Shown one piece after another: positions 1 to 61,570 of a stretch of 64,000 nt of DNA. The position numbers were made by a program, and so were the translations under genes. The DNA is taken from assembly GCA_963662795.1 (NCBI GenBank), contig OY759746.1, forward strand, positions 3,456,001 to 3,520,000, read 5' to 3'. The notes beneath the pieces are model-generated. The model worked only from the letters and a program-made list of their open reading frames with translations. It was not told where the DNA came from and made no database searches. This DNA comes from Spirochaetia bacterium. GTDB taxonomy: Bacteria; Spirochaetota; Spirochaetia; CADAEX01. How positions within the stretch are numbered: the first letter of the stretch is position 1; every line of letters starts with the position of its first letter.

Positions 1-2388
1 ATTGTCGAATATCTGTGCGGAAGAATTCTTGATTACGGAGAAAATAAATTTGCGCTCAGAACTCTTGCAGACTGTTATGAAAATGAAGGCGAGTTAGAGA
101 ACAAAATCGCAATCCAGGAAAGACTGATAAAAGTTGACTACGATGAAGCGGATATAGTCAAACATCTTGCTGAAAAATATGATTCAGACGGTAACAGGGA
201 TAAGGCTGTTGAATATTATAAAAAAGCTGTGCACCGGTATGCCAATAAAAAAATGTTTTCCAATGTAAAGGAACTCTGGACTAAACTTCTTGATTACTGC
301 CCCGATGAAATTGATTTTTTCTATCACCTTAATAAAAAAATTGCAAAATATATAAGCGAAGACAGAGCGGTACAGCTGCTTGAAGAATTGTATGAACATT
401 ATAAGAAAAAACAGAATTGGGATTATGCGATAGATATCTTAAAAAACATTCTTTTAATGGATCCTTCAAATAACGATATAAGAAGTGAAATAATCTACTG
501 CTTCAGACAGAAATACAGTTACCACAGCCAGCTTGAAGAATATATCAAGGTTTCAAATCTTACACAGAAATGGCGCAATATTCATGAAGCAATTGCAGAT
601 TTCGAAAAACATATTTCATTTGAAAGCAATAACTTTGTTTTTCACCGCTCCTGGGGAATCGGACTGATTACAAGCATAAAAGGGGATAATGTTGTTATTG
701 ATTTCATAAACAAGAAAAAACACAGCATGTCGCTTAAGATGGCTGTCAACGCCCTCACAATGCTTGGTAAGGATCATATATGGGTTTACAAGAGTACACA
801 CAAAAAGGATGAACTGAGAAAACTCATTAAAAAAGATATTCCATGGACACTGAAAACAATTATAAAAAGCTTTGATAATTCTGCAGATATGAAGAGAATT
901 AAAAGTGAGCTTGTTCCCGGAATACTGACTCCCGGAGAATGGACATCCTGGAGCACCGAGGCAAGAAAAATATTAAAAACTGACTCGGATTTCGGCAATT
1001 TGCCTGATAAGGTTGATTTTTTTGTGGTAAGGGATAAGCCGATTACGTTTGAAGAAAAAACATTTAACAAGTTCAAGGCAGAAAACAGTTTTTTTGCAAA
1101 ACTTAAAACTCTCCTTGATTTTGTCGATGAAGTATCGGTTGAATCGGATTTCTTTCCTGAAATGCTTCAATATTTCACAAATTACCTGAAATCATACAAT
1201 TCTGTTAATGAATATATTATTTCCAGTTATATTCTTGTAGATGAGATTTCCACGAAATTTCCCCATCTAAACCCCGGAATTAATATTACTTTTAATGAAT
1301 TATTTGAACAGACTGAAGATATAAAATCAGTATTCAATAAAATAGCTGACTCTGATCTTAAAAAAATATTTCTCGAAAAAGTTAAATTATATAATCCGCA
1401 GTGGCCGGCTGTCTATCTTGCAATATTTCCGGAATATCTTAATAAAAGCATAATTGACGCGCTTCTTATTGAAGGGCATAAAAATGAATTAACTGCACTT
1501 GCGGTTAAGATACATGAAAATTATAAGGAATACAGGGAAGCATTTATGTGGATTTTGAAAAACATGGATGAATATCCGGTTTTTCAAAAAGCTTTTCCGG
1601 GAGAAGAGAAAATTCTGGTCAATGCAATTCATCTTCTTGAAATTACTGACAGGGAAATTGCCAACAAGAGAGATGTAAGCAATAATAAAAAAATAATAAG
1701 ACAGATAAATAATTATCTGTTCAAGGATAACAGGCTTGAGAAATTTATTCTTGAAGCTGAAAAAGACAGGATTATCCGGATGGTATCCTTGATTGATGAT
1801 ATTGGAGGCGTGGACCCTCTTCTCAAGATAGATATCAAGAAAAAAGTAAAAAATATACATCCTGATATTAAATTAATCGGTATTGAGGAAGAAGTAGAGA
1901 CTGTTTCCAGAGGAATTATCGTTACAACTGAAAGCCTTGAAAACAAAAAGAAAGAGCTTAAAAACATCCTTGAGGTTGAAATCCCTGCCAATTCAAAGGA
2001 AATTGGAGCTGCAATACAGCTTGGGGATTTACGTGAAAACGCTGAGTACAAGGCAGGAAAGGAAAAACAGGAAATGCTTAATTCTGCCGTAGGCAAACTT
2101 AAAGAAGAAATTGAAAGATGTCAGATTTTTGATCCTGCAAATGTGAGGACTGATAAAGTTTCTTTCGGTACAAAGGTTGTCCTTATAAACAAACAGACAG
2201 GCGAAGAAGAAAGTTATACAATACTTGGGCCCTGGGAATCATCTCCTGAAAAAAATATTATTTCTTATCTTGCCCCGTTTGGAAATGAACTTCTTGATGC
2301 TGGTGCCGGCGATGAACTTGACTTCACTATCAATGATTCAAAATATGAATTTAAAGTTAAAGAGATATTAAAATCTGAAATAATCTGA
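1..2388 (+). CDS. greA: Transcription elongation factor GreA with long N-terminal helical/TPR-like extension (5' truncated by window edge)
   Basis: Frame is open from base 1, so the GTG at 229 is internal. C-terminal GreA motifs GDLRENAEY, VSFGTKV, YTILGP, ISYLAPFG. Long GreA is typical of spirochetes and chlamydiae. Confidence 0.93.
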   Translation: MVEYLCGRILDYGENKFALRTLADCYENEGELENKIAIQERLIKVDYDEADIVKHLAEKYDSDGNRDKAVEYYKKAVHRYANKKMFSNVKELWTKLLDYCPDEIDFFYHLNKKIAKYISEDRAVQLLEELYEHYKKKQNWDYAIDILKNILLMDPSNNDIRSEIIYCFRQKYSYHSQLEEYIKVSNLTQKWRNIHEAIADFEKHISFESNNFVFHRSWGIGLITSIKGDNVVIDFINKKKHSMSLKMAVNALTMLGKDHIWVYKSTHKKDELRKLIKKDIPWTLKTIIKSFDNSADMKRIKSELVPGILTPGEWTSWSTEARKILKTDSDFGNLPDKVDFFVVRDKPITFEEKTFNKFKAENSFFAKLKTLLDFVDEVSVESDFFPEMLQYFTNYLKSYNSVNEYIISSYILVDEISTKFPHLNPGINITFNELFEQTEDIKSVFNKIADSDLKKIFLEKVKLYNPQWPAVYLAIFPEYLNKSIIDALLIEGHKNELTALAVKIHENYKEYREAFMWILKNMDEYPVFQKAFPGEEKILVNAIHLLEITDREIANKRDVSNNKKIIRQINNYLFKDNRLEKFILEAEKDRIIRMVSLIDDIGGVDPLLKIDIKKKVKNIHPDIKLIGIEEEVETVSRGIIVTTESLENKKKELKNILEVEIPANSKEIGAAIQLGDLRENAEYKAGKEKQEMLNSAVGKLKEEIERCQIFDPANVRTDKVSFGTKVVLINKQTGEEESYTILGPWESSPEKNIISYLAPFGNELLDAGAGDELDFTINDSKYEFKVKEILKSEII

Positions 2389-46443: not shown

Positions 46444-46452
46444 TTAAAACCC

Positions 46453-47898: not shown

Positions 47899-49327
47899 TC
47901 ATTTTCTCCTTCAATACGAGCATTTCCCTCTGATATTTTTCAGCCAGTGATTTTGCTATGTTCACTGACTGACCTCTATATAGTTCAGGGTTGTCAAAAA
48001 AATCAGATGCATCAAGGCCTGTAGTCTTATTAAGCTGATTTGCAACCTTTTCCCATACTTCTTTGTCTTTCTTTAAAAGCGAAGATAATTTTTCTCCCTT
48101 TTTTTCGCATTCAAGCGTAATTTTCCTGATTTTCTCATGTGCATCAGGTTCACCTGAACAGGAAAGAAGAATATAAGCAGCTTCAGCCAGAACAAGATCA
48201 CCTGTCAATACAAGATTGTCCTTCATCTTTTTTTTATCAACATATAAAGTTGATAAGACTTTTCTGATTCTGTTTAATGCTGCTGCAAATCCGGCTATAT
48301 AATCTGCCACAAATCTTGAAGAGGCCGAATTTGAAAGATCCCTCTGATGTTCTGAAATCTGGTCCATGTAAAAAGTAATTACCCTTGGACAGAATGCTTT
48401 CCACAAACTTTTAACATGCTCACTGTTCCATGGATTTCTCTTTTGCGGCATTGTAGATGAGCCCACCTGTGTTTCTGTAAACATTTCCCTTATCTCTGTT
48501 ATTTCAGATCTCTGAAGATGACGAAGGTCATCTGCCAGGTTAGCTATAATGCCGAATGCTGTGTTCATTTCAAGCAGAAGCCGCAGCAGATATTCCGGTT
48601 CAATCAGCTGGGTTGAATGTTCCGACGGTTTAAGTGAAAGATAAGAGAGGGTCTCTTCTTCCATTTTGACGGGATCTTTGACTATCAGCGATGTTGAATT
48701 ATATGCACCTACGGCGCCTGCCAGTTTTCCCCTGAGATCATCAGAGGCCTCTTTTATTTTAATTATTGATTTGCCCAGTCTTGAAACATATTCCGAAATT
48801 GCAAATCCGAAAGTAATCGGCACAGCATGCTGACCGTGCGTTCTTCCTACCTGAGGAGTCCCGGCTTCCGTATCAGCAATTTTTATAAGTATTTCCTCAA
48901 TTTCCATAAGCAGCCTGAGAAGAACATTCCTTGTTGCATCACGCATTTTAAGTGATGTCGCTGTATCCAGTATATCAACAGATGTAGCTCCAAGGTGAAC
49001 ATAGGGTTTGATACTGTCTGATATATGCTCTTTTATAACATTCACCAGTGCCCTTATATTATGCTGGGTCTTTTCCTCTTCTTCATATACTTTTGCCGGA
49101 TCAATAGTATTTTCAAGAGATTCTGCTTCTTTTATCAATTCTTCGCAGTCATCATGATTATTCATGATTATGTGTGTTTTTAATAAGGCGGCTTCCACTT
49201 TTACACAATATTTTATGGATGCTTCTTCCGAGAGATAATTACTCAACTCTTCAAAAAGCTCTTTATTTGATAAAAAATACCTGTGATCAAGAGGAGAGAT
49301 GTTTAGAAAAATATTTCTGGTTATCAT
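47891..49327 (-). CDS. purB: Adenylosuccinate lyase
   Basis: ISPLDHRY, HLGATSVD, GRTHGQHA, GSSTMPQKRNP, EHQRDL. Confidence 0.94.
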   Translation of the reverse strand: MITRNIFLNISPLDHRYFLSNKELFEELSNYLSEEASIKYCVKVEAALLKTHIIMNNHDDCEELIKEAESLENTIDPAKVYEEEEKTQHNIRALVNVIKEHISDSIKPYVHLGATSVDILDTATSLKMRDATRNVLLRLLMEIEEILIKIADTEAGTPQVGRTHGQHAVPITFGFAISEYVSRLGKSIIKIKEASDDLRGKLAGAVGAYNSTSLIVKDPVKMEEETLSYLSLKPSEHSTQLIEPEYLLRLLLEMNTAFGIIANLADDLRHLQRSEITEIREMFTETQVGSSTMPQKRNPWNSEHVKSLWKAFCPRVITFYMDQISEHQRDLSNSASSRFVADYIAGFAAALNRIRKVLSTLYVDKKKMKDNLVLTGDLVLAEAAYILLSCSGEPDAHEKIRKITLECEKKGEKLSSLLKKDKEVWEKVANQLNKTTGLDASDFFDNPELYRGQSVNIAKSLAEKYQREMLVLKEKMNG

Positions 49328-49414: not shown

Positions 49415-51310
49415 GTGTCTGATAAGTATGGTTTACTGCTCTCCCAGGCAATAGAATATGGAGAAAAAAGAGAATACTCAAAAGCTGTTGAATTTTTACT
49501 GAAAATTGTTTCAGAAACCGATTCTTTGCCTGAAGCTTTTTTATTTCTGGGCAGAAGCTATCATGCTTTGGGAGAATATTACAAAGCAGTTCAGTCTTTC
49601 AAGATTTATCTTACATTTAAGAATAATTCAGCAAGGGGATACTTTTTTCTTGGAAGGACCTATCATTCTCTTGGTATTTATTCGAAAGCCCTGAAATGTT
49701 TTAAAAAAGCACTGGAAATTGCACCCGATAACCCGGAAGTTTTAAGCCTTACCGGAATGACCTACCTGAAGCTGAAAAAAGTTTCTGCTGCATTGAATTA
49801 TCTGGAACAGGCTGTGTTTGCGGCAACTGAAAATAAATCAATTTATAATGCGTATCTTAATGTTCTTTATTTAAAAGGAATTAAAGATTTCTATACAGGA
49901 AATAGTGATGAGGCAGAACAGATTTTTGAGTTTCTTATAAAAACAGAAAACAATCTCCCTTCGGTATTACTGCACCTTGCTTCTGTCAAAAAGGAAAAAG
50001 GAGAAATTGCACAGTCGCTGGATCTTTACACAAAAGTCATTAATGAAAATCCTGAGGATCATTTATTAAAAATGCATATTATCCCTCTTTTGATCCAGGT
50101 GGGAAGAACAGATGAAGCAGCTAAAATCATTTTTGAACTAACCAGCAAAAAAATACAGATAGATGATCAATACCTTAATGAAATCGATATAAACAGGATT
50201 ATTGCCATAGAAAATTACAGCAGGGGAAAATATAAAAACGCTGTATTTTACGCAAAAAAAGTATTGAAGGAAAACAATTATGATAATGAAATGCACCTTC
50301 TCATGGGGGAAGCATTCAGAGTAACTGATAATCTGGATAAAGCAGAAAATCACTTCAGACTTGTAATAAAGCGTGATGAAGCAAAAATAGAGGCAGTTTA
50401 CGGGGTAATACTGGTTTTATGGGTACAGGAGAGGTATAAAGAACTTTTTGAAGAGCTCTCAAGAGGAAAACGCCATTTTCCTTCAGATGAAATTATTGAT
50501 TATTATTATGCTTTAACTGCCGGAAAGCTCTATTATGACCCCGAACAGACAATTGCCCTTCTGGTGTCTGTGGCAGAAAAGAATGACCCGGACCCTTATC
50601 TATCAGAAGCTTTGGGAGAGCAGTATCTTCGTCTTTCAAAACCTGATATTGCAGAAAACTATTTTAAAAAAGCTATTGAACTTGGAGAAACCCTGGCTTC
50701 TGCCTACATCGGGCTTATCAAGACTTATCATCTCCTTGGTAAAAAAAACAAGATCGGAGGTATATTCCGCAGTTATCTGACCCATTTTCCAGAAGACAAC
50801 AGGATAAGAAAATATTATATCAATCATCTGTATATGACTGGAAATTTTAAAAAAACAGCCAAAGAAATTGAAAAATATGCGACAGGTAATGATTCTGACA
50901 TGACTACAGAAAGACTTCTGGCCAGATGCTACCTGAATACAGGTGATTACCAGAAAGCAATGATATTATACAGGCAACTTCTCCGTGAAAATCCCGGTGA
51001 TGACAAGTATTTATTATCCTACGTTTACTGTCTTGACAAGCTTTCAGAAACAGAAAATGCAATCAGTCTTCTTGTAAAGTCAAGAAAATATTTTAATAAT
51101 AATATATCTATTGAACTTACGATTGGAGTACTTTCAGCCCGTCTGAACAAGGAGGAGGAAGCGTTAAATGCATTTAAAAAAGCGCTTGAAATCAACGAAA
51201 AGGAATGGAGGGCATACTACAATATTTCGAGGATATATGATAAACAGGGTTTAACTGAATTTGCTCTCAAATTCAGAACTCGCGCAGAACAACTTAAAAA
51301 AAGTACTTGA
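49415..51310 (+). CDS. Tetratricopeptide repeat protein
   Basis: Multiple TPR motifs (AFLFLGRSYHALG, GYFFLGRTYHSLG, AYYNISRIY). Confidence 0.85.
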   Translation: MSDKYGLLLSQAIEYGEKREYSKAVEFLLKIVSETDSLPEAFLFLGRSYHALGEYYKAVQSFKIYLTFKNNSARGYFFLGRTYHSLGIYSKALKCFKKALEIAPDNPEVLSLTGMTYLKLKKVSAALNYLEQAVFAATENKSIYNAYLNVLYLKGIKDFYTGNSDEAEQIFEFLIKTENNLPSVLLHLASVKKEKGEIAQSLDLYTKVINENPEDHLLKMHIIPLLIQVGRTDEAAKIIFELTSKKIQIDDQYLNEIDINRIIAIENYSRGKYKNAVFYAKKVLKENNYDNEMHLLMGEAFRVTDNLDKAENHFRLVIKRDEAKIEAVYGVILVLWVQERYKELFEELSRGKRHFPSDEIIDYYYALTAGKLYYDPEQTIALLVSVAEKNDPDPYLSEALGEQYLRLSKPDIAENYFKKAIELGETLASAYIGLIKTYHLLGKKNKIGGIFRSYLTHFPEDNRIRKYYINHLYMTGNFKKTAKEIEKYATGNDSDMTTERLLARCYLNTGDYQKAMILYRQLLRENPGDDKYLLSYVYCLDKLSETENAISLLVKSRKYFNNNISIELTIGVLSARLNKEEEALNAFKKALEINEKEWRAYYNISRIYDKQGLTEFALKFRTRAEQLKKST

Positions 51311-51349: not shown

Positions 51350-51904
51350 ATGATGAACCAGCCAATAGCTTTAGATCTTTTCCAGGCTTACAATGAAAGT
51401 AAAATGCCTGATAAAGGCGGATATATAGTCTCATCGTTTTTTAATCAGAATTCAACTTATTCAATATACGAAATTGTTGCTTATGATAATGTAAAAAGTA
51501 TTTATTTCAGTGAAACAAGTTTAACATTCCAGGCAGACGGCCATAAAGTATTCGTACTTGTCGAACCTGCAAACTATGCCCACAAATACCAGGAACCTTT
51601 TACAAGGGTAAAGGGTGAATCCATACCTCATCGTTTTTCTGAACTTGATATTGTAACAGCTAAAAATCAGACAAAAGTTATGGTAAGCAAAGAGCCAGTG
51701 GTTTCTTATTCTTCTTTTACTGTATTAAAGCCAACAGGAGTAAATTTTTCACTGATATTCTACCACCAGGAAAATATTCTTAAATCGCTTGAATTTTTCT
51801 TTACACAGACTCTTAACAAGGAAGCCGGCGTACCTTCTCTGGATACTAAAAAGTCTGCGAAAGCTGTAATAGAGGGATTGAAAAAGTTCAAACTCTGGAA
51901 ATAG
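51350..51904 (+). CDS. Hypothetical cytoplasmic protein
   Basis: 184-aa ORF with AGGAGG RBS and a downstream terminator; no recognised motif. Confidence 0.75.
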   Translation: MMNQPIALDLFQAYNESKMPDKGGYIVSSFFNQNSTYSIYEIVAYDNVKSIYFSETSLTFQADGHKVFVLVEPANYAHKYQEPFTRVKGESIPHRFSELDIVTAKNQTKVMVSKEPVVSYSSFTVLKPTGVNFSLIFYHQENILKSLEFFFTQTLNKEAGVPSLDTKKSAKAVIEGLKKFKLWK

Positions 51905-51979: not shown

Positions 51980-54613
51980 CTATTCCTTAATAAAGTACTG
52001 GGCAACTGCCAATGTCGCAATAGGAACTGAATAGGTAGAGCATGAAACATAATTAAGCCCGGCCCCTATACAGAATTCAATATTAACAGGAACAGCTCCC
52101 TGTTCCCCGCATAAACCCATAACTATATCAGGTCTTGTCATTTTTCCTCTTCTTACAGCTGTCTGTACAAGTTCCTGAACGTTTGGATCAAGTATTTCAA
52201 ACGGATTGGCCGGTATAATATCAAACTGGGTATAATCCGGCATAAAATTATTGAAATCATCGCGGGATAGGCCAAGAGTTGTTTGAGTGAGGTCATTTGT
52301 CCCGAAAGAGAAAAATTCTGCATACTTGGCGATATCTCCGGCGCTCAGCGCTGCTGCAGGAAGTTCTATCATTGTTCCTATTTTGTATTCAACAGGTTTA
52401 GCTTTTAATGACTCTCTGACCTGAAGTTCAACTTCCGTTAGACCTTTAATTGCTGTCCCTTCAATTTTCTTTCCGTAAACTATGGTTTTTAATTCCTCAG
52501 TATTCATAATAATTGGAATCATTATTTCAGGGTTAACCTTAACTCCCTCTTTTTGCAGTGAATACACTGATTCAAAAAGGGCTGTAACCTGCATTTCGTA
52601 TATTTCAGGATAAGAAATTGCAATTCTGCATCCCCGATGACCAAGCATTGGATTAAACTCGCTTAAACCGTCACATAACAGGGCTATCTCTTTTTGAGTT
52701 ATTTTTTGATAACCTTTCTGGGTTTTAAGATACTTAATAAAATCATCCATTTCTTTAGCATTATGCGGAAGAAATTCATGCAAAGGTGCGTCAAGAAGCC
52801 TTATTGTTACTTCTTTGCCCTCCATGATTTTTAATATTTTATAAAAATCATCTTTCTGCATATTTTTAAGCCGCAAAAGAGATTTTGCCCTTTTTTCCTT
52901 ATTGTCAGAAAGAATCATTTCACGGAAAACATTAATTCTTTTTTCATTGAAAAACATGTGTTCAGTTCTGCACAATCCGACACCTTCTGCACCGAATTTT
53001 TTTGCAAGCGAACAATCGCGCGGATTGTCTGCGTTTACCCTGACATGGAATTCCTTGTTATATTTTTTAGCAATCTGGATGAGTTTTTCAATTCCTGAGG
53101 ATGCAAAATCAGGTTCAATAAGTGTTGATTTACCGATATAAATTTCAGGACTTCCATAATGAGGAATATTCAGGGTAACATAATCACCTTCATTAAGCGT
53201 TACATCGTCAATGGTAATTTTATTTCCTTTGAATTTCATTTCAGGTTTAACAAGCGAAACTTTTCCATATTGCCGCGCAACAACAGACGCATGCGCAGCG
53301 TATCCGCCTTCTGAAGATAAAACACCGGATGCAACTTCGATGGCTTTAACATCTTCAGCAAAAGTAGCTTTCATGCAAAGTATGAAATTTGTATCAAGTC
53401 CCTGCTGCATTGCGACCTTGTTGGCATCAAGAAGAGCTTCTGTGGTAAAAAAGATCCTTCCTATTGCCGCCCCGGGAGCTCCGGTAATACCTCCGACAAG
53501 CTTTTTAAAACCTTTAGTTGAAGTGATATCAATGATTGGATGAAGTATTTCATTAAGCTGTTCAGGTTTTATTGCATTTAAAAAATATTTATCATCAATA
53601 AGTTTTCTATCGTGCAGATCAAGCAATGTAATTATCTCAGATTTAACCGATTTGTTAAGTACGTCCCTTTGATCAACAAGCCATAGTTTGCTGTTTTCAA
53701 TGGTAAAGCGGATATGTCTTATATCCTTAAAATGATCTTCCACAGTTCTGGCAATTTTATCCAGTTTAGAAAAATTCGATTTGTCAATCTTTGTAATATC
53801 TTTGCCTTTTACACCTGTAAAGTCAAAAGTATTCTGGAAATATTCTCCAAACAATACTTTATCTCCATTGATAATATTTCTTGTATAAAAGGAACCGCTG
53901 CATGATGTATTGCCTGTATTACCGTATACCATTGCAGAAACGCCAATTGCTGTATCGTTATCATTCATCTCATCAATTTTAAGCAGATAACTTACTCTTG
54001 ATATTGCATAGTCAAGCTGTTCATATGCATCTTCGAAAAAACTTTCCGGTAAAATTCCTTTTACCATCTCATAAAGTTTCTCAAGATCTTTTTCAGAAAC
54101 ACTTTTGTTGATTTTTCCGCTTATAAAATCAATTATTGTGTTGATTTTTATTGATTCCTTCTCTTTCTCTTCAATTTTTAATATTTTATCTTCAATGATG
54201 AGCAGTCCTTTTACCATAAAAAAAAGTTCGTTGTTGGAAAATTCACTGCCTACCATTTTGCTGAAACCATGAAGCGTCTTTTTTGTCAATCCGAAATTGT
54301 GCAGCGCCGGATAACTGCTTGTTATAATCAGGTTTGGGCTGATTACAATCTTTAAAGTCAAGGGTTTAGTTTCAGCGTCATATTTCTTCCCCATTTTATT
54401 TTCTACTTTGGAAATAAATGGTTTTATATATTTTATTATCTGACCGGTTTCAATAGAAGAAGCTACATCAGAGTCAATTGCGAATCCCGGAATTACAGGT
54501 AAATTCAGTTCTGCGAAATTATTTGCTTCTCTTATTCTTAACCCAATTTTTTCAAGTATTGATGAATTCTTTATAAATTCTTCTTTACAAAAAAAATGAA
54601 TATTATTTTTCAT
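51980..54613 (-). CDS. Pyruvate phosphate dikinase-like PEP-utilising protein with degenerate nucleotide-binding domain
   Basis: Retained: GGYAAH(441)ASVVAR, GLCRTEHMF, TIRLLDAPLHEFLP, NPMLGHRGCR, GTMIELP, FSFGTNDLTQ, GLCGE. N-domain catalytic motifs are altered (see findings). Confidence 0.9.
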   Translation of the reverse strand: MKNNIHFFCKEEFIKNSSILEKIGLRIREANNFAELNLPVIPGFAIDSDVASSIETGQIIKYIKPFISKVENKMGKKYDAETKPLTLKIVISPNLIITSSYPALHNFGLTKKTLHGFSKMVGSEFSNNELFFMVKGLLIIEDKILKIEEKEKESIKINTIIDFISGKINKSVSEKDLEKLYEMVKGILPESFFEDAYEQLDYAISRVSYLLKIDEMNDNDTAIGVSAMVYGNTGNTSCSGSFYTRNIINGDKVLFGEYFQNTFDFTGVKGKDITKIDKSNFSKLDKIARTVEDHFKDIRHIRFTIENSKLWLVDQRDVLNKSVKSEIITLLDLHDRKLIDDKYFLNAIKPEQLNEILHPIIDITSTKGFKKLVGGITGAPGAAIGRIFFTTEALLDANKVAMQQGLDTNFILCMKATFAEDVKAIEVASGVLSSEGGYAAHASVVARQYGKVSLVKPEMKFKGNKITIDDVTLNEGDYVTLNIPHYGSPEIYIGKSTLIEPDFASSGIEKLIQIAKKYNKEFHVRVNADNPRDCSLAKKFGAEGVGLCRTEHMFFNEKRINVFREMILSDNKEKRAKSLLRLKNMQKDDFYKILKIMEGKEVTIRLLDAPLHEFLPHNAKEMDDFIKYLKTQKGYQKITQKEIALLCDGLSEFNPMLGHRGCRIAISYPEIYEMQVTALFESVYSLQKEGVKVNPEIMIPIIMNTEELKTIVYGKKIEGTAIKGLTEVELQVRESLKAKPVEYKIGTMIELPAAALSAGDIAKYAEFFSFGTNDLTQTTLGLSRDDFNNFMPDYTQFDIIPANPFEILDPNVQELVQTAVRRGKMTRPDIVMGLCGEQGAVPVNIEFCIGAGLNYVSCSTYSVPIATLAVAQYFIKE

Positions 54614-54633: not shown

Positions 54634-55683
54634 TTAGAATAGTCTCAAAACAGTGTTAACAGGGTATTTCAAAAAATCTTCAAATCTATGACTTGCGCCC
54701 TGTCTAAAATATCTTTGAAGTTTGGCTACATCCTGAATATCTCTTCCTGATACTGCAAACATGATTGCACTGCCATGTTTAACCTTACCCCATTTGAAAA
54801 GTGTATTTATATCGTGGATTCTTTCACCTTCATAGAAAATTATGACATCTGCACCTGGATATTTTGCTTTATAACTTCCTATGATCCTTTTCCACGCTTC
54901 AACATTTCCGTTGTGAAAAAGTTCATTGGTAACAGGGACAGCATACAGAGGCGTCATTCTTACAGGTCCGCTTCCGGTTGATGCAGGGACAGGTGCTGCT
55001 GCTTTCGATGCCTGCTGTGGTGCAGAGGCCGATTCTTTTACTTCAGCTCCGGAAGATTTTTGTGCTGTTTTATTTACCGATTTTTTAGTTGTACTCTTTT
55101 TTACCTGTGCTGTATTTTTTGGTGCCGGTTTCGTTTTTAAAACTTTAACTTTATATTTCCCGTCTAAAACCTGAGCAGGAACCTTTGGTTTTTTATTTTC
55201 AAATATTTTTATTATTTCTTCGATTACTTTTAAAGAATATTTATTCCCGTTTTTACCTGAATAATCGCCTGCATAAATTGTAAGTATTTCATATTTTTTA
55301 AATTCCGAAGTCAGCTGAAGACTTTCAAGTCTTTTCGGATTAATAACAAGATATCCAATGTTGGGATTATGATAACCAAAAACAATATCTATACCCGACC
55401 ATTTGGAAACTTCTTCCTGAATCTTGCTGAAATCAGTTATGGTTTCTTTTAAATTAATTGATTTAAAGGAATAATTATATTTATCAACAAGAAGGGAGTT
55501 AATTACAGGTAAAAGCTGATGCTGTTCGAGTTCCCCTTCCTGCAGATTTTTATTCAAAATATCTGCAATATTGTTGTAATCTTCAAATTCATTTATTGCT
55601 GAAAGTACAGAATTAAAATGGTTTAACGATTTATTAAAACCATCACGCGTATAAAAGCGCTCAAATTCTTTTATATCAGTCAT
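54634..55683 (-). CDS. Hypothetical protein: N-terminal domain, K/A/P-rich linker, C-terminal putative HPr-like domain
   Basis: 349-aa ORF between cfpA and the PPDK-like gene with an AGGTG RBS. The HPr similarity is a by-eye alignment only. Confidence 0.75.
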   Translation of the reverse strand: MTDIKEFERFYTRDGFNKSLNHFNSVLSAINEFEDYNNIADILNKNLQEGELEQHQLLPVINSLLVDKYNYSFKSINLKETITDFSKIQEEVSKWSGIDIVFGYHNPNIGYLVINPKRLESLQLTSEFKKYEILTIYAGDYSGKNGNKYSLKVIEEIIKIFENKKPKVPAQVLDGKYKVKVLKTKPAPKNTAQVKKSTTKKSVNKTAQKSSGAEVKESASAPQQASKAAAPVPASTGSGPVRMTPLYAVPVTNELFHNGNVEAWKRIIGSYKAKYPGADVIIFYEGERIHDINTLFKWGKVKHGSAIMFAVSGRDIQDVAKLQRYFRQGASHRFEDFLKYPVNTVLRLF

Positions 55684-55751: not shown

Positions 55752-57788
55752 TTAAATTGTAGTTAATTTATTGCCTGAACGTTTTCTCGTAGTAGTTTTT
55801 TTCTTTGAATTATCAACAACGCCGGTTGATTTTCTTTTTTCCTTTGCCGGTTTTGCTTTTGTAACTGCGAGTGCAGGTGCCGGGGATTCATTGTCAATGG
55901 TACTGTTCAGAAGATCAAGATAACTTTGTCCTTTATCTTCTTCTTCGCCTTCAGCAAGTTCAGTAGAGAAAGACTGACTGATATCTCCCCTGACAGTTGA
56001 CCTTCTTCGTGAGAATGAAGCAAACGCAGCATCCTGGAATCCTTTGGAAACACCATAAAGGAATTCATTGAGGACATTTGCCATACCGTCAAGTGTAGCT
56101 TTCTTTCTTTTTACTGATGTAATATCAAGATCAAAAAGAAGACCGGGCTGAATATGATAAGGATTTATAATATAATCATAATTGTTGAATTGTGCTTCAA
56201 GCTTTTCAAGCCTTTCTTCCATAACACGGCGCTGAATCGGATACTTATAGCCGTACATATCATGGAGTCTATTCTTCATAAGAACAAATCTCTTTTTAAT
56301 TTTATCCTTTTCAAAAATATATGTTCTGTTCAGCTCTTCTACACTTGTTTCAGCAGCCCTGATAAAAGAAACTTCATCCCAGACTTTCTCAATATTTTCA
56401 TAAAGAGGATCGCCTGTTTTTGCTTTGATGGTTTTTGCTATCTTGTTTTTATATGCTTTTGCAAGATCTTCAAAATCTGTTACACCCTTGAATCTCTTGG
56501 CATCCTGATAAACCATTTCAAGGATATCCCAAAGATGCTCTACTTCAACTTCAAAAGACTTGATCTGTACATCATAAGCTTTCTGTTCTTCAATAAGCTG
56601 TGCATTATCGTAATATCTCATTCGGATCTGATATCTTTCATCAGGAAGATGTTTTGCATCAGTATCTTCATATTCCCTGATCAACAGCTCTCTTCCGTTT
56701 TTCAGGTTTTCAATATACTGATAACCCATTTTTGAAGTATCAAGAATTGAGGTTATTGAATTGATTGCAGTGTTGTAGCCTCTGTTTCTGATATTTTCTA
56801 TATCAATTATCTTTTTAAGGTTTTCACGTACATTCAGCTGATCAAAAGACTCCGGCGGAATCTCTGCCCTTAATCCGTCAATAGCATCCATAAGATTTTT
56901 AGCAACAAGATTAAATCTCTTTGATTTGGGGTTATTCTTGTCATCATCAGTAAGGGTTTCCACCTTTTTCATCTTCTCAAAGATTATTTCACTATCGGTA
57001 AACTCTTCTTTACCTTCATCAATGAGCTGGTCTTTCAGTTTTTCAATCTCTGCATCAAGAATATCTGTGATGTTTTTCGAGATCAATTCCTTGATAAGAT
57101 ATTCAACTGTAGCCTGATAATGAAAAATCGGGCTGATCAGTTCTGAATCAAGGATATTAACAGACATTTTTACATCGCAAACAGTTTTTGGTTTGTAAAT
57201 ATTGTCTTTAAATGCACATTTCACAACAGAGTATGCATTTTCACCTCTGATAAACGCACCTACATCTGTTTTCTGCCGTAAAAGTGAGTTTGTGAGGTTT
57301 TCCAGATCGTTAACACCCCTCTGGATATGTCCCTGAAGGTGTCCGTACATGTTGACGATAGATTTTTCAATCTCACCGGTATTGAACTTATCCATACCGC
57401 CAACTTCATCAAGAAGTGTTGCAATTTCCTTAGGTGTATACCTGTTAAGAACCTGCATTTCCTGTTTGTCTATAAAATTCCTGACTCTTTTTACCATTTC
57501 ATCTTCAGTAGTAACAATATATCTATTGAACATATTCTGGTAGTTCTGGTTAAAATAGTTATAGACTTTTTCTTTAAGTCCACCCATTACATCAATTTTT
57601 TCCACAACTTCAAGTGGAAGTTTTGAAGTAACATGGTTTATTACTTTGTCTACTTCTTCTGCAAGAAGTCTGTCAACTTCGGCCTGCTGATCCCTGCTTT
57701 CCTGAGCGAGAGAGTTTCTAGATCCTACAGCACTCGGCTTCTCTGGGTGGAATACCATCGGGCTTTTTGGAAGATCAATACTTGCCAT
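55752..57788 (-). CDS. cfpA: Cytoplasmic filament protein CfpA
   Basis: 678 aa coiled-coil-rich protein. N-terminus [30 protein letters not shown] and C-terminal [17 protein letters not shown] match treponemal CfpA as I recall it; AAGGAG RBS. Confidence 0.9.
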
Positions 57789-58010: not shown

Positions 58011-59441
58011 ATGAAGAAGCATATTTTTTTGTTTATGTTTATTATGCTATTTTTGCGATTTCCGGTTTTTTCCGACAACAGGGAAGAAAATATTGATGTT
58101 TTTATTGTTCTGGATAAATCCTTGTCAATGGAAGATAAAATCGGGGCTGTAAGCGGTTATATAAACACATATATAGTGGACAGAATTATAATACCCGGCG
58201 ACATGCTTTATATACTGGATTTTTATGGAAAAACAGAAATTCTGATAAATTCCGAAATAACTGATGAAAATCACAAAACAGAAATCAAGAATACTATAAA
58301 AGAGGTAAAGGCAGACGGCAGATTTACAGATATCGGCAATGCACTTGACGGTTTGTCCGAAATAATACCCAGGTATGAGAATAACGGAAGATTAAAATAT
58401 ATGCTCCTTATAACTGACGGCAAACAGGAAGCTCCTCCTGAAAGCATATATTACAGTCCGGATGGAAGTTTCAATCACAGGTTTCTTGAGCATACAAGGA
58501 CAATTGAAAAACAGGGCTGGAAAATACAGGTTCTGGGTATAGGCAATAATACAGATGCTAAGGCGATAGCGGAAAAACTTTCAGCCGCTTATTCAGAAGT
58601 CGAGGCTCCCGCCGATTCATCAGATGAAGCATCTGAGAAATTAATTAAAGATATGATATCAGAAACAGAAGATTTTCTTACCGTTTTCAGCATAACTTCA
58701 CCGCCCGAAATAATTTACAAAGGTTTTTTCCAGAAATCATTTATGGTAATAACTATTGAAACATCAAATCTTGAAACAGAGAAACTGGTTAAATTGTCAT
58801 CAATGTATCTTAAAACTGATACTTTATCTGAAACCGACATTCTTGAGACAAGAAAATCTATTGAATTTACTGAAAATGGTATCAGAGAGGTACAGATCCC
58901 TGTAATTATTCCGTCTGCCCTTGAACCTGGAAAAGTTAATGGCAGTTTACGAATTTATTATAACAGTCATGATAATTTGACACCTTCAATACTTGATATT
59001 ACTTTTAAAAACAAAGGGATTTTAAGCAGGTTTTTTCTTCATTTTTCAGCAGTCGGAATTCTGCTGATTTTTTTATTATTTTTACTGCTTAAAAAAAGAT
59101 CAACGCCGGTTCTTTCTGTCAAGAAAGAAGGCTCAGGAAAAGAAATTGCTTTTTACTGCTATGTAGACGGCAGTAAACTGCAGGAACTGCCTTTTATACT
59201 CGGGAACCAGGATAAACTGTATCTAAACCTTTCTCCTGCCGGATTCATAAATTTTACAAAACAAAAACTTGCAACAACAAAAGCGTTTCTTACGGCAAAA
59301 GGCAATATGATTTCAATGGAGGTAATCGATAAATCATTTATTGAGGGGCCCAAAAATGTATTTGATAATATTCTTGAAAAAAGCTTTAATTTTATGAAAA
59401 AAAACGGTAAACATCTATTGATCAATTTCAAGAGGAAATAA
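58011..59441 (+). CDS. vWA-domain membrane protein (Tp0750-like)
   Basis: Signal peptide, IVLDKSLS MIDAS, FTDIGNAL, LLITDGKQEAPP, TM helix; divergent from cfpA. Confidence 0.85.
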   Translation: MKKHIFLFMFIMLFLRFPVFSDNREENIDVFIVLDKSLSMEDKIGAVSGYINTYIVDRIIIPGDMLYILDFYGKTEILINSEITDENHKTEIKNTIKEVKADGRFTDIGNALDGLSEIIPRYENNGRLKYMLLITDGKQEAPPESIYYSPDGSFNHRFLEHTRTIEKQGWKIQVLGIGNNTDAKAIAEKLSAAYSEVEAPADSSDEASEKLIKDMISETEDFLTVFSITSPPEIIYKGFFQKSFMVITIETSNLETEKLVKLSSMYLKTDTLSETDILETRKSIEFTENGIREVQIPVIIPSALEPGKVNGSLRIYYNSHDNLTPSILDITFKNKGILSRFFLHFSAVGILLIFLLFLLLKKRSTPVLSVKKEGSGKEIAFYCYVDGSKLQELPFILGNQDKLYLNLSPAGFINFTKQKLATTKAFLTAKGNMISMEVIDKSFIEGPKNVFDNILEKSFNFMKKNGKHLLINFKRK

Positions 59442-60583
59442 TGCATATAACTTCTTTATTCATAGACCGGGGCTATTTTAACAAAAAAAATATTCCAGGA
59501 TTTTCATCTGAATTCTCATTATCAGCTTTTCCATTTTGGGGAGAATACAACTTTTTGGATTTTGCCTACTACAACACTATTCTGCCAATTGATAATACTG
59601 AAATCAGAAGACTTCTGCTGTGTAATAAAAATGTTAAAAAAAATGCCTTTGCATCGCTTTCCCGATGGGATGACGCTATGGCTGAAATACTTTCAATTGA
59701 TTCGGAAATGGATTTTGTTTCAGAGCTCGCTTCCCTACTTGCCGGAGATTATGTACTGCTTTACGATATTAATCATGCTTCACTGATCTCAGAAACCGGC
59801 AAAAAAAAGATTCTTGAAATAACTGAATCCCTGGATAGCGATGAAATTGTAAAATTGTCTATAAATAATGTTCCTGTTGATATTTATCTTTCGCCGGTAA
59901 ACCATTTTATAGAATTACTTGAAAAAAACCGGAATTTAATGGAAAAAGAAAAAAAGTTTATTGAAACCCTTGTAGATGAAATAATGATTGGATGTTTTGA
60001 CCAGACAATTAATGTTGAAGGTAATGTATATTTCAACAGCACAATTACACAGTTTTACGAGAACAACATTGCACTTCTATATGACGGTGAATCGAATCTT
60101 ATGAACAATTTCCTTGCTGCTGCGCCGGAACCGGCAGAAAAAGATTCATTTATCAATAAAAACAGCATGGTGATAAATTCAATTATTTCTTCAAATGTAA
60201 AAATTGAAGGGTATGTTGAAAATTCGATAATATTTTCCGATGTGGTGATAAAAAATAACGCAAAAATAATTAATTCAGTAATATTAAACGGTAATCAGAT
60301 TGGAAAAGATGTGCTGATATCCAATGCTCTTGTTTTTCCCAATTCCAAAAACCCTGGCAGTATTTCAAATATACAGGAAAAATCTGTTATCGGAGGTAAT
60401 TCGAAAAAGGCGGTGAATATTTCTTATCCTGATCAAATCTATAATGGACTTACTTTTTTGGGGGCCAATCCTAACACACCTAAAAATTTCAGTATAGAAC
60501 CGGGGGGATACATGGGTGCAGATATACCATCCGTTAAACTGAAAAAGAATAATAAAATTGCCAGAAACGGTTCATTAGAATGA
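59441..60583 (+). CDS. Degenerate GlgC/GlgD-like protein (sugar-phosphate nucleotidyltransferase fold + left-handed beta helix)
   Basis: AFPFWGEYNFLDFAYYN resembles PFGGKYRIIDF; C-terminal NSIIS..VKIEGYVENSIIFSDVVI hexapeptide repeats. No GxGxRL motif. Confidence 0.6.
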   Translation: MHITSLFIDRGYFNKKNIPGFSSEFSLSAFPFWGEYNFLDFAYYNTILPIDNTEIRRLLLCNKNVKKNAFASLSRWDDAMAEILSIDSEMDFVSELASLLAGDYVLLYDINHASLISETGKKKILEITESLDSDEIVKLSINNVPVDIYLSPVNHFIELLEKNRNLMEKEKKFIETLVDEIMIGCFDQTINVEGNVYFNSTITQFYENNIALLYDGESNLMNNFLAAAPEPAEKDSFINKNSMVINSIISSNVKIEGYVENSIIFSDVVIKNNAKIINSVILNGNQIGKDVLISNALVFPNSKNPGSISNIQEKSVIGGNSKKAVNISYPDQIYNGLTFLGANPNTPKNFSIEPGGYMGADIPSVKLKKNNKIARNGSLE

Positions 60584-61566
60584 AAAAATATAAAAAATTC
60601 TTTATGTTTCTTGATAATTTCAGAAAAATTATCATTACTTCACATGAAAACCCGGATGCTGATGCAATAGGCAGTGAATATGCCATATGCCTGCTGCTTA
60701 AGAAGCTTGGATACAATGCTGCAATTATGACATGTGAAGAAATACCGGAAAAATATAACTTTATAAACATTGGAAATTATATCAATGTTTACTCACGTGA
60801 AAATATAATTAATGAAGATCTTTCCGATGCTGCCCTGGTTGTTCTGGATACAAATACACCGACAAATACCGGGTATATTTATAATTTAATTAAGGATTTT
60901 GTTAAAGATATCTTTATAATTGACCACCATGAAATAGATGAAAATATTTTTAATAAAGAAAAAAGTATTATAGATGAAAATTCTTCATCCACATGTGAAA
61001 TTTTGTTTAATATTTTTAAATACTGCCGTGTAGATATTGATTTTCCTGCGGCCCAGGCAATTTATGCAGGGATACTCTACGATACCGGTTCTTTTATATA
61101 TCCAAAAACAAGCAGCAAGACACTGGAAATTGCTTCAATTCTGGTGAAAAAAGGGGTAATTCCAAAGAATGTTTATTCCAACCTGTATGAGATGAACAGC
61201 CTTTCATCCCTGCGGCTTCAGTCAAAAGTATTTTCAGAAATAGAGTTTTATCACTATAACAAAATTGCACTACAGGTTATGCTGAAAAAGACTTTGGAAT
61301 ATTTTAAAGCAAATTATGAAGATGGAGATAATATTATTAATCTGCCTTTGAAATGTAAAGATATTCTGGTATCAGTTTTTTTTAAAGAAAATTATAATGG
61401 GATATTAAGATGCTCTATCAGATCAAAAAATAATATTGATGTAGTTGGAATTGCTAAAAAATACGGCGGCGGCGGCCATACTACTGCAGCAGGTTTTAAA
61501 TGCAAGGAATCTCTTGAAATTGTTAAGGAAAAAGTGCTAAAAGAAATTATTCAATTGCTTGGCTAA
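60580..61566 (+). CDS. nrnA: DHH/DHHA1 phosphoesterase (NrnA/DhhP family)
   Basis: SHENPDADAIGS, VLDT, IIDHH, YDTGSF, SIRS, GGGGH. Confidence 0.9.
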   Translation: MKKYKKFFMFLDNFRKIIITSHENPDADAIGSEYAICLLLKKLGYNAAIMTCEEIPEKYNFINIGNYINVYSRENIINEDLSDAALVVLDTNTPTNTGYIYNLIKDFVKDIFIIDHHEIDENIFNKEKSIIDENSSSTCEILFNIFKYCRVDIDFPAAQAIYAGILYDTGSFIYPKTSSKTLEIASILVKKGVIPKNVYSNLYEMNSLSSLRLQSKVFSEIEFYHYNKIALQVMLKKTLEYFKANYEDGDNIINLPLKCKDILVSVFFKENYNGILRCSIRSKNNIDVVGIAKKYGGGGHTTAAGFKCKESLEIVKEKVLKEIIQLLG

Positions 61567-61570
61567 AAAA

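Follow-up and report, generated by a model that had tools for sequence, protein, structure and literature searches.

Described systems close to the locus analysed here are the ptsH-ptsI operon, a three-gene stretch of Treponema and, for the predicted fold, the HPr family. In the ptsH-ptsI operon, the HPr gene is followed by the Enzyme I gene, and in HPr itself His15 sits directly before helix 1. To our knowledge, enzymes of the PPDK type lack the helical subdomain with which Enzyme I binds HPr. In T. denticola, TDE0843, listed as hypothetical, lies between cfpA (TDE0842) and a putative PPDK gene (TDE0844), and Table 5 of PMC3914990 lists the three as repressed together. For the T. denticola envelope fraction, Table 2 of PMC3931704 counts TDE0844 and CfpA among the major bands; TDE0843 is absent from the 16 major bands given there. 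Full-text literature searches yielded a table row as the sole mention of the TP_0747/TDE0843 proteins, and no paper describing HPr-like folds in them or the gene module as such.

The window, a 64,000-nucleotide stretch of a Spirochaetia bacterium genome (contig OY759746.1), shows the T. denticola arrangement: an ORF of 349 aa (54634..55683, minus strand; window positions throughout) lies between cfpA and a PPDK-type gene. The encoded protein is of the same family as TP_0747/TDE0843 of Treponema, with no difference in this respect. PF27497.1, named TP_0747_N in the Atlas, was assigned to the N-terminal part of the window's own protein and to all of the best 120 listed of 3188 homologues, as read from precomputed annotation. 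The locus resembles ptsH-ptsI in that a small gene for a predicted HPr fold immediately precedes one whose product is a PEP-utilising enzyme with a phosphohistidine domain and a PEP-binding barrel, and it differs in that the downstream enzyme is of the PPDK type and not Enzyme I. The same genome also has a standard HPr gene adjoining hprK, an Enzyme I encoded elsewhere and a frame of 866 aa that matches both HPr and Enzyme I. The N-terminal HPr-like fold, the module of cfpA and PPDK paralogue, and the co-occurrence with cfpA described below are new in this analysis.

Predicted layout of the TP_0747-type protein

The AlphaFold2 model (pLDDT 87.8 for the whole protein) predicted an N-terminal three-helix bundle, an HPr fold (residues 71-164), a tether, a further HPr fold (about 243-335) and a tail. 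Residues 1-68 (55480..55683, minus strand, as are all features of this gene) form three long helices (13-34, 39-48 and 54-68; pLDDT 74-94) and gave no separate fold match. They are followed by the first HPr-like fold (residues 69-165; 55189..55479), placed with AlphaFold2 and VIA-align, by the Lys/Ala/Pro/Ser-rich tether (166-240; 54964..55188), modelled at pLDDT 52-63 without secondary structure, and by the second, very strongly conserved HPr-like fold (241-337; 54673..54963). The conserved C-terminal tail (residues 338-349 and stop; 54634..54672) ends in L-F, and both L348 and F349 are near-invariant, stand-alone homologues included. The first-pass annotation had placed a cryptic HPr-like domain at residues 243-349, and the ORF translation indeed puts these residues at 54634-54957 on the minus strand, with the quoted residues present and His257, Thr294, Gly304, Gly313 and Asp315 at the positions claimed. 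The composition and the modelled disorder of the linker also agreed with that annotation; it spans about 75 residues (approximately 166-240) between the two ordered parts. Tether length and charge varied among 26 homologues. A nucleic-acid-binding role of the tether was considered and dropped, as its charge is not maintained among the homologues, some of which have acidic linkers.

Structural likeness to HPr

The C-terminal domain reached a pLDDT of 92-98, with one block at 83, in the whole-protein model and 93.6 (pTM 0.87) when folded alone. Its elements were modelled as strand 247-250, helix 258-274, strands 279-284 and 287-289, helix 294-297, strand 306-313 and helices 319-329 and 332-337. 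The proposed HPr fold for about 243-335 was supported by this model, in which the order strand-helix-strand-strand-helix-strand-helix is that of HPr, Crh and NPr (PF00381), the best solved matches; both the order of elements and the top match point to the open-faced sheet of the HPr family. Against HPr, Z was 6.3-8.1 and rmsd 2.2-3.0 Å, with 77-84 of about 85 residues aligned; the match to 1opd gave Z 8.1 and rmsd 2.2 over 81 residues (243..332 against 1..85). When 998 of Foldseek's top 1000 chains were re-aligned, HPr or Crh occupied every one of rows 1-28 (Z 6.6-8.1, rmsd 1.9-2.9, 77-84 aligned), and the best non-HPr fold had Z 6.5, followed by values of 5.3 or less. An unbiased scan of 48,161 representatives returned HPr in the top four places, whether the whole protein or only the C-terminal domain served as query; ferredoxin-like and aIF2-alpha domains came next in the scans (Z 5.5-6.1). 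No Foldseek match of the models reached E 0.001, and Z values of 7-8 are rated "middling" by the fold tool and are common for models without clear relatives.

The N-terminal part, previously described as an unknown domain, was predicted to contain an HPr-like fold of its own at residues 71-164 (Z 6.6-7.5) behind the three-helix bundle, so that HPr is the best structural match to both ordered domains. It was modelled as strand 72-77, helix 86-92, strands 99-106 and 110-114, helix 119-122, strand 133-139 and helix 150-161. VIA-align gave Z 7.6 and rmsd 2.0 over 80 residues against HPr 9s8b_C (71..164 against 1..84) and Z 7.0 against 1pch_A, and seven of the top 28 HPr rows among the re-aligned Foldseek chains mapped to this domain. 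It has no His at the place equivalent to His15; an NPK motif is conserved at 115-117. An internal duplication is not supported, since hhalign between the two domains returned a probability of 0.4%.

The modelled protein departs from HPr in carrying two copies of the fold on one chain, separated by a disordered tether. Its C-terminal domain further differs in a helix 1 about five residues longer, in an additional helix and tail after helix 3, in a Gly at the Arg17 position, in the absence of a conserved Ser46 equivalent and in the lack of sequence similarity.

Sequence comparison and conserved residues

Searches of Pfam and NCBIfam gave no match of the TP_0747-type protein to HPr (PF00381) at E<=1, and BLASTP gave no alignment to the same genome's own HPr at E<=100; that HPr scores 101 bits on the HPr profile. 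Against a profile of 28 HPr sequences, profile-profile comparison (hhalign) returned a probability of 7.9% for the first domain and 0.7% for the C-terminal one; a further hhalign comparison of the C-terminal domain with HPr gave 1.3%. When the complete set of PDB sequences was searched with a profile at E<=10, 11 matches appeared, none of them HPr; the best rows, an RxLR effector (E 0.015) and the NusA N-terminal region (E 0.03-0.06), were treated as noise. By these comparisons, the sequence likeness of the C-terminal domain to HPr is no greater than chance. The G-x8-G spacing and the "SLFK" motif, which had been offered as features shared with E. coli HPr, do not hold in 28 aligned spirochaete HPrs, where invariance within the motif is confined to G67 and D69. 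The column at position 58, numbered on the HPr of this genome, varies in that alignment, and Ser46 stands in the context KSIMG; Arg17 and Ser46 are invariant in all 28.

The earlier observation that a His stands just before the first helix was upheld by the model, in which His257 (codon 54913..54915, minus strand; translation ELFHNGN) directly precedes helix 258-274, as His15 does in HPr. The structural alignments start at residues 243-245 against HPr 1-2 and therefore place His257 within one residue of His15. Among 90 two-domain cluster representatives, His257 is kept in 87, the exceptions being S, Q and N. Position 259, the equivalent of Arg17, is Gly in 87 of the 90, in line with the Arg17 absence already remarked upon. 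Position 294 is not conserved, with T in 33, S in 30 and A in 25 representatives (position 293 is N in 70); as Ala occupies the site in 25 of 90, a Ser46-like site is not a feature of the family. G304 and G313 are conserved in 87/90 and 80/90 representatives, respectively, and position 315 is D in 24, E in 24 and N in 20. Of the features that mark the HPr family, the C-terminal domain has the predicted order of strands and helices and a His at the active-site position, and it lacks Arg17, a conserved Ser46 equivalent and a profile match. A two-domain homologue without His257 (P0208) was also used as a query against 401 genomes and found nothing closer than 42% identity. Conservation is highest in the C-terminal domain, which is about 75-79% identical where the whole TP_0747-type protein is about 47% and CfpA about 75% identical.

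Ten stand-alone homologues were found in metagenome genomes of non-spirochaetes, and none has His in the column aligned with His257. In five of them a His follows one to three positions later, so the "loss" of the His is partly dependent on the alignment. They sit between purH-like and ubiE-like genes and, where the context was readable, had no adjoining genes for PEP-utilising enzymes.

A divergent PPDK paralogue downstream

The gene downstream encodes a PPDK paralogue of 877 aa (51980..54613, minus strand), which scored 654 bits on TIGR01828 against a curated cut-off of 843 bits, 236 bits on PEP-utilizers_C and only 110 bits on PTS_I; PPDK_N matched with 27 bits over 50 residues. It is 34% identical to the canonical PPDK of the same genome, whose nucleotide-domain motifs GGKGANL, VRSGAAVSMPGMMDT and DIEFTIQ are replaced in the paralogue. 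His441 (codon 53291..53293, minus strand; translation YAAHASV) aligns with the His of the canonical GGMTSHAAVVARG, and all 60 orthologues retain it together with the motifs of the PEP/pyruvate domain. Judged from these motifs, the phosphohistidine and PEP/pyruvate domains of the paralogue are intact and its nucleotide-binding domain is remodelled. One genome, G347, encodes a paralogue of 586 aa from which the nucleotide-binding domain is wholly absent; its start overlaps the stop of the TP_0747-type gene by 4 nt. Most of the 120 closest listed relatives of this short protein have 850-900 aa, and most carry no PPDK_N annotation. The few relatives that measure 562-681 aa come from contigs 2.6-7.9 kb long, so that the truncation is documented in G347 only. 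A 1.1-Mb genome of the class (G102) has the divergent paralogue as its only PPDK. A complex prediction that paired the paralogue (877 aa, 60 rows) and the C-terminal domain (114 aa, 117 rows), run without controls, yielded scores of 0.03 and 0.02, the mark being 0.32, and carries no weight for or against a complex.

Gene order and co-occurrence with cfpA

The cfpA gene for cytoplasmic filament protein A (55752..57788, minus strand; 1168 bits on NCBIfam NF040882, whose cut-off is 500) lies 69 nt upstream of the TP_0747-type gene on the same strand. In 80 related loci, cfpA, the TP_0747-type gene and the PPDK paralogue were found on one strand, with the paralogue directly downstream in all 80 and cfpA upstream in 76, the other four having less than 400 nt of flank. 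The stop of the TP_0747-type gene is separated from the start of the paralogue by 20 nt in the window and by a median of 20.5 nt in 66 loci, and no terminator-like sites were found between the three genes. A gene order common to related genomes may be a product of their shared ancestry. In several families the TP_0747-type gene and cfpA lie on different contigs and still co-occur, and where the two were apart the paralogue remained directly downstream of the TP_0747-type gene in four of five genomes examined. In one genome (G076), the TP_0747-type gene adjoins neither partner.

In 401 Spirochaetota genomes, the TP_0747-type gene was found in 145 and CfpA in 148. Hand comparison of the two presence lists gave 144 genomes with both, one with the TP_0747-type gene alone, four with CfpA alone and 252 with neither, i.e. 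five mismatches, a table that overstates the case as related genomes are not independent. In the sole genome with a TP_0747-type gene and no CfpA (G048), the contig ends just upstream of the TP_0747-type gene.

Possible functions of the TP_0747-type protein

The position of the gene between cfpA and a divergent copy of a PEP-using enzyme suggests that its product links the two. Tentatively, and with a little less than even confidence, we favour a reading in which the protein has two heads and docks on, or regulates, both the PPDK paralogue and the CfpA filament; predicted fold, conservation, gene order and co-occurrence are results of the analysis, and the binding partners and the docking face are inferred. 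One head would hold the paralogue and the other the CfpA filament or a second site, while the disordered tether would give reach. The C-terminal domain would dock through its HPr-type face, made up of the loop between strand 1 and helix 1 and the start of helix 2; candidate residues of the docking loop are N253, F256, His257, G259, N260 and E262-A263-W264. That a His is so strictly kept where HPr has its active site is better explained by chemistry, which speaks against docking alone. Further points against this reading are the middling Z values, the relatedness of the genomes compared, the detached gene of G076 and the absence of TDE0843 from the major envelope bands; in its favour are the leading ranks of HPr among the structural matches, the three-gene module, the co-occurrence with cfpA, the high conservation of the C-terminal domain, the joint repression of TDE0842 to TDE0844 and the envelope bands of TDE0844 and CfpA.

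The first-pass annotation had likened the tethered domain to a swinging phosphocarrier arm, and the gene for a PEP-utilising enzyme immediately downstream lends this circumstantial support. The protein would then be a true phosphocarrier: the paralogue would autophosphorylate at His441 from PEP and pass the phosphoryl group to His257, the two genes forming a ptsH-ptsI-like pair and the tether swinging the domain to an acceptor on or near the filament. The gene order is that of ptsH-ptsI, at a median gap of 20.5 nt, and His257, directly before helix 1 of the HPr-like fold, is kept in 87 of 90 representatives, as are His441 and the PEP/pyruvate motifs in every one of the 60 orthologues. Also in favour are the replacement of the canonical nucleotide-domain motifs, the lack of a PPDK_N annotation in most of the 120 listed relatives and the absence of the whole nucleotide-binding domain from the 586-aa paralogue of G347, and the ten stand-alone homologues, with no PEP-utilising neighbour where the context was readable, never have His in the aligned column. 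That last point is weakened by the nearby His in five of the ten. Further against a phosphocarrier, Gly stands in place of Arg17 in 87 of 90 representatives, three two-domain representatives have S, Q or N for His257, and near-invariance extends beyond the His region over the whole C-terminal domain. We also know of no PPDK-type enzyme that phosphorylates a protein, and in G102 the divergent paralogue, the only one present, probably still works as a PPDK. Phosphotransfer to His257 is judged unlikely, if well worth considering, and the same holds for the phosphocarrier in full.

Also rather unlikely, in our estimate, is the extended form of this scheme, a phosphorelay attached to the cytoskeleton, which would run from PEP to His441 of the PPDK-derived enzyme, then to His257 and to delivery or a signal at the CfpA filament; a complete or ongoing loss of the nucleotide half of the enzyme belongs to the same doubtful scheme. 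If true, the relay would put the HPr fold to PTS-like use a second time, with no recognisable ancestry in sequence, and would link the spirochaete cytoplasmic filament to the PEP/pyruvate state of the cell.

Docking on both partners, as preferred here, was also weighed against a role confined to the filament, in which both HPr-like folds would bind or bundle CfpA and the paralogue would merely be co-transcribed. The near-perfect co-occurrence with cfpA (five mismatches in 401 genomes), its place directly upstream in 76 of 80 loci and a C-terminal domain as conserved as CfpA all agree with such a role. We nevertheless consider it improbable, given that away from cfpA the TP_0747-type gene still adjoins the paralogue in four of five genomes, that the gaps between these two genes are very short, with an overlap in one genome, and that the T. 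denticola paralogue fractionates with CfpA according to the band table of PMC3931704. Least probable is that the resemblance to HPr merely reflects a widespread small alpha/beta arrangement irrelevant to function, for instance in a domain binding a small ligand or nucleic acid: the sequence signal is absent, the Z values of 7-8 are middling with ferredoxin-like and aIF2-alpha domains following at 5.5-6.1, and the stand-alone homologues lie in a different context between purH-like and ubiE-like genes, but HPr fills the first 28 rows with nearly all of its length covered at an rmsd of about 2.2 Å, two separate domains of one protein both match it best, and the most conserved residues lie at the location of its active site.

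The filament gene would thus be tied to two partners, a tethered protein with two predicted HPr folds and a divergent PEP-utilising enzyme, and the "PPDK" annotated beside cfpA in treponemes is, by its motifs, not the canonical enzyme.

Predicted structure of the X protein

The open reading frame of the TP_0747-type protein X occupies positions 54634..55683 (-) of the window and has 349 codons, of which the last 107 encode the C-terminal domain (residues 243-349). The first-pass annotation had described this domain as a cryptic HPr-like domain on a flexible tether, resembling a swinging phosphocarrier arm, with His257 just before its first helix. On translation, the residues it quoted were found under the same numbers, including Thr294, Gly304, Gly313 and Asp315, and the His257 codon lies at 54913-54915 (-). 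The proposed Lys/Ala/Pro/Ser-rich linker was also present, at about residues 166-240, between two ordered parts of the protein.

The AlphaFold2 model of X, calculated from a 102-row alignment, had a mean pLDDT of 87.8 and a pTM of 0.77. It comprises three N-terminal helices (13-34, 39-48 and 54-68), a first unit at residues 72-161 (strand-helix-strand-strand-helix-strand-helix), an unstructured stretch (pLDDT 52-63) and a second unit at residues 247-329, which repeats the order of elements of the first and has a short additional helix after it. His257 directly precedes helix 258-274, which agrees with the proposed position before helix 1. Residues 236-349 modelled alone (118-row alignment) gave identical elements with a pLDDT of 93.6 and a pTM of 0.87.

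When both models were compared with the PDB by Foldseek, HPr and Crh entries filled nearly all top places (best E values 0.034 and 0.02, probability up to 0.99, target-normalised TM-score up to 0.64); no match in this search reached E 0.001. In a VIA-align scan of 48,161 representatives, whole X was matched by the HPr chains 9s8b_C (Z 7.6, rmsd 2.0, 80 aligned) and 1pch_A (Z 7.0) at residues 71..164 and 72..165, and by 7ff5_A (Z 7.5, rmsd 2.5, 81 aligned) and 1kkl_H (Z 7.2) at residues 244..333 and 246..335. A phosphoglucosamine mutase domain (6.5) and aIF2-alpha (6.1) came next. With the C-terminal domain alone, HPr took the top four of the 48,161 places (Z 7.2, 7.2, 6.9 and 6.3), followed by a match at 5.8. 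After re-alignment of 998 of the 1000 chains ranked highest by Foldseek, the first 28 rows were all HPr/Crh (Z 6.6-8.1, rmsd 1.9-2.9, 77-84 aligned; the tool cautions that Z<8 may reflect a common arrangement). Twenty-one of these rows mapped to the C-terminal domain and the other seven to residues 68-165, and the best row, 1opd (Z 8.1, rmsd 2.2, 81 aligned), paired X 243..332 with residues 1..85. Since the matches span almost the whole of HPr, outscore the next fold by 1.4-1.6 Z units and are chosen by two separate domains of X, the HPr-type fold assignment, which is based on models and not on a solved structure, is probably correct. A predicted architecture of two HPr-type folds on a tether is well supported, as is the presence of a His at the HPr active-site place of the C-terminal domain.

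Sequence comparison and conservation

The same genome encodes a standard HPr (a 91-aa ORF adjoining hprK, 101 bits to PF00381); Enzyme I is encoded separately, and an 866-aa frame matches both HPr and Enzyme I. BLASTP yielded no alignment at E<=100 between the C-terminal region of X and this HPr. In profile-profile comparisons, the whole X family scored 1.3% against the same HPr and the C-terminal domain 0.7% against a 28-sequence HPr profile; residues 69-166 scored 7.9% against the latter, in a 17-column match covering the last helix only. A search of all PDB sequences with the X profile (E<=10) gave 11 matches, none of them HPr. The short motif matches from which the likeness to HPr had been read are therefore no better than chance, and neither the G-x8-G spacing nor 'SLFK' is a feature of spirochaete HPrs.

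Searches of the local Pfam and NCBIfam libraries assigned X to no family. In a large protein collection, 3188 of 4917 candidates were relatives of X at E<=0.001, and all 120 relatives among the matches listed carried a precomputed PF27497.1, named TP_0747_N in the protein Atlas; in their source records they are called 'hypothetical protein' and assigned to Spirochaetes. When residues 236-349 were compared with 1.84 billion cluster representatives in a full HMMER scan, 124 proteins matched at E<=0.001, of which 99 reached 1e-10 or better and 71 reached 1e-30 or better.

Among 26 close homologues the C-terminal domain was near-invariant and the N-terminal half far less conserved. Residue conservation was followed in an alignment of 102 sequences drawn from two homologue searches, 90 of at least 250 aa (the two-domain set) and 12 shorter. 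Position 257 was His in 87 of the 90 two-domain sequences, the exceptions being S, Q and N. Position 259, equivalent to Arg17 of HPr, was instead Gly in 87; Gly was also found at positions 304 (87/90) and 313 (80/90), while positions 294 (T33/S30/A25) and 315 (D24/E24/N20) varied. The most conserved columns (N253, F256, G259, N260, E262, A263, W264, I267, S270, Y271, L295, F296, L322, L326, A330, L348 and F349) were grouped round His257 and where helix 2 begins.

The cfpA-X-paralogue locus

The cytoplasmic filament protein A gene cfpA (55752..57788 (-); NF040882, 1168 bits) lies 69 nt upstream of X on the same strand, and a PPDK-type gene of 877 codons (51980-54613 (-)) starts 20 nt after the X stop codon. 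No terminator-like site was found between these three genes in the window. Genes for VWA-domain, hexapeptide-repeat, DHH/DHHA1 and Pallilysin beta-barrel domain proteins follow beyond cfpA (58011-63094 (+)), an order that corresponds to the one next to cfpA, around TP0746-TP0751, in T. pallidum. The C-terminal end of CfpA (55752-55900 (-)) is a Lys/Thr/Arg-rich tail beyond the 605-position family model, similar in composition to the X linker of the same genome. Beyond the paralogue, on the opposite strand, lie a 184-aa ORF without a Pfam family (51350-51904 (+)) and a 631-aa TPR protein (49415-51310 (+)), and most of the best 80 related loci have both at the corresponding position. A purine nucleotide block with consecutive guaA-, purA-, guaB- and purB-type genes occupies 43679-49327 (-).

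Related loci were taken from the best 80 of 592 confirmed X relatives, one genome per species. The paralogue was directly downstream of X in all 80 and cfpA directly upstream in 76, the remaining four having <400 nt of upstream sequence. The gap between X stop and paralogue start had a median of 20.5 nt (66 loci) and was <=36 nt in 60 of these 66.

An even sample of 401 Spirochaetota genomes contained 145 with X and 148 with CfpA; comparison of the lists by hand gave 144 genomes with both and 252 with neither. The one genome with X and no CfpA (G048) has a contig end just upstream of X; four had CfpA and no X (G338, G261, G278, G400). Most genomes had one CfpA match, and G005 had three separate full-length matches on three contigs. 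Within families the distribution was patchy, e.g. 9/9 genomes of one genus and 0/24 of another in the same family, which points to joint loss or gain of X and cfpA, although related genomes are not independent. In several families X and cfpA were on different contigs. Where X did not adjoin cfpA, the paralogue still followed it immediately in four of five genomes examined; in the fifth (G076) it was on another contig. In position, therefore, the link of X with the paralogue is closer than its link with cfpA; in occurrence, X is linked with cfpA. Its membership of a cfpA-X-paralogue module is well supported.

The PPDK-type paralogue

Judged by its sequence, the 'PPDK' adjoining cfpA is a divergent paralogue, which scored 654 bits with TIGR01828 (cut-off 843), 236 bits with PEP-utilizers_C and only 27 bits with PPDK_N. 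The canonical PPDK of the same genome (G000:C1:3435930-3438563, locus L100), which scored 1345.6 bits, is located some 20 kb ahead of the window and is 34% identical to the paralogue. Its motifs GGKGANL, VRSGAAVSMPGMMDT, DIEFTIQ and GGMTSHAAVVARG read GLRIREA, KIVISPNLIITSSYP, HIRFTIE and GGYAAHASVVARQ in the paralogue; the replaced motifs are presumably nucleotide-binding residues, as in the C. symbiosum enzyme. His441 and the PEP/pyruvate-domain motifs were invariant in 60 paralogue orthologues. PPDK-type matches occurred in 282 of the 401 genomes, mostly two in X-positive genomes and one in many X-negative genomes. In the 1.1-Mb genome G102 the sole match was low-scoring (E 2e-183) and of the divergent type.

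In genome G347 (L101, G347:C1:2403000-2413000), the X homologue (6351-7427 (-)) is followed by a paralogue (4594-6354 (-)) whose start shares a 4-nt overlap with the X stop. This paralogue, of 586 aa, starts just ahead of the phosphohistidine domain, without the nucleotide-binding domain, which shows that X and the paralogue can stay paired even where the enzyme lacks its nucleotide half. Most of its 120 closest relatives were full length, so the truncation belongs to one lineage. In G347, CfpA is matched about 160 kb from this pair, within an open frame of 2159 aa that contains one TAA.

Possible role of X

In T. denticola, cfpA (TDE0842), the conserved hypothetical gene TDE0843 and the putative PPDK gene TDE0844 are reported to be co-repressed when the organism is co-incubated with other oral species (PMC3914990). 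Among the 16 major envelope-fraction proteins of T. denticola, TDE0844 and CfpA were bands 1 and 3 and TDE0843 was absent (PMC3931704). A T. pallidum transcriptome study mentions cfpA and ppdK separately (PMC8525777). Our literature searches found no paper discussing TP0747 or TDE0843.

Because X co-occurs with CfpA, the enzyme (TDE0844) co-fractionates with CfpA in T. denticola and the whole C-terminal domain is near-invariant, we tentatively favour X as a docking or regulatory subunit that would couple the paralogue to the filament. A phosphocarrier role is less probable: His257 stands at the HPr active-site place, the X-paralogue gene order resembles ptsH-ptsI and the nucleotide domain of the paralogue is remodelled or missing, but X lacks the Arg17 equivalent, three two-domain sequences lack His257 and one genome has the paralogue as its only PPDK-type match. 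A role in the filament only, and an unrelated function with the fold likeness arising by chance, are less probable still.

Stand-alone and shorter relatives of the C-terminal domain

Ten stand-alone homologues (111-147 aa), some labelled by their sources as SAR324 or 'Deltaproteobacteria' metagenome genomes, had no His at the column aligned with position 257; in five, a His followed one to three residues later. Relatives of the stand-alone domain were located in 17 metagenome loci. One (L098) encodes a two-domain X followed by the PPDK paralogue, and no PPDK or CfpA match was found in the other sixteen. This lack of the aligned His in homologues unlinked to a PEP-utilising gene is a further point in favour of a phosphocarrier. 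In the three longest loci (L083, L091, L097) the gene lies between purH-type (AICARFT_IMPCHas) and ubiE-type methyltransferase genes, and L085 and L087, judged by eye, have such surroundings too; the stand-alone homologues at these loci measure 111-163 aa. Three shorter two-domain forms of 233-262 aa (P0211, P0220, P0373), without the N-terminal helices, were found outside Spirochaetota; they keep a His-His before helix 1, and one of them is labelled 'Candidatus Lambdaproteobacteria'.
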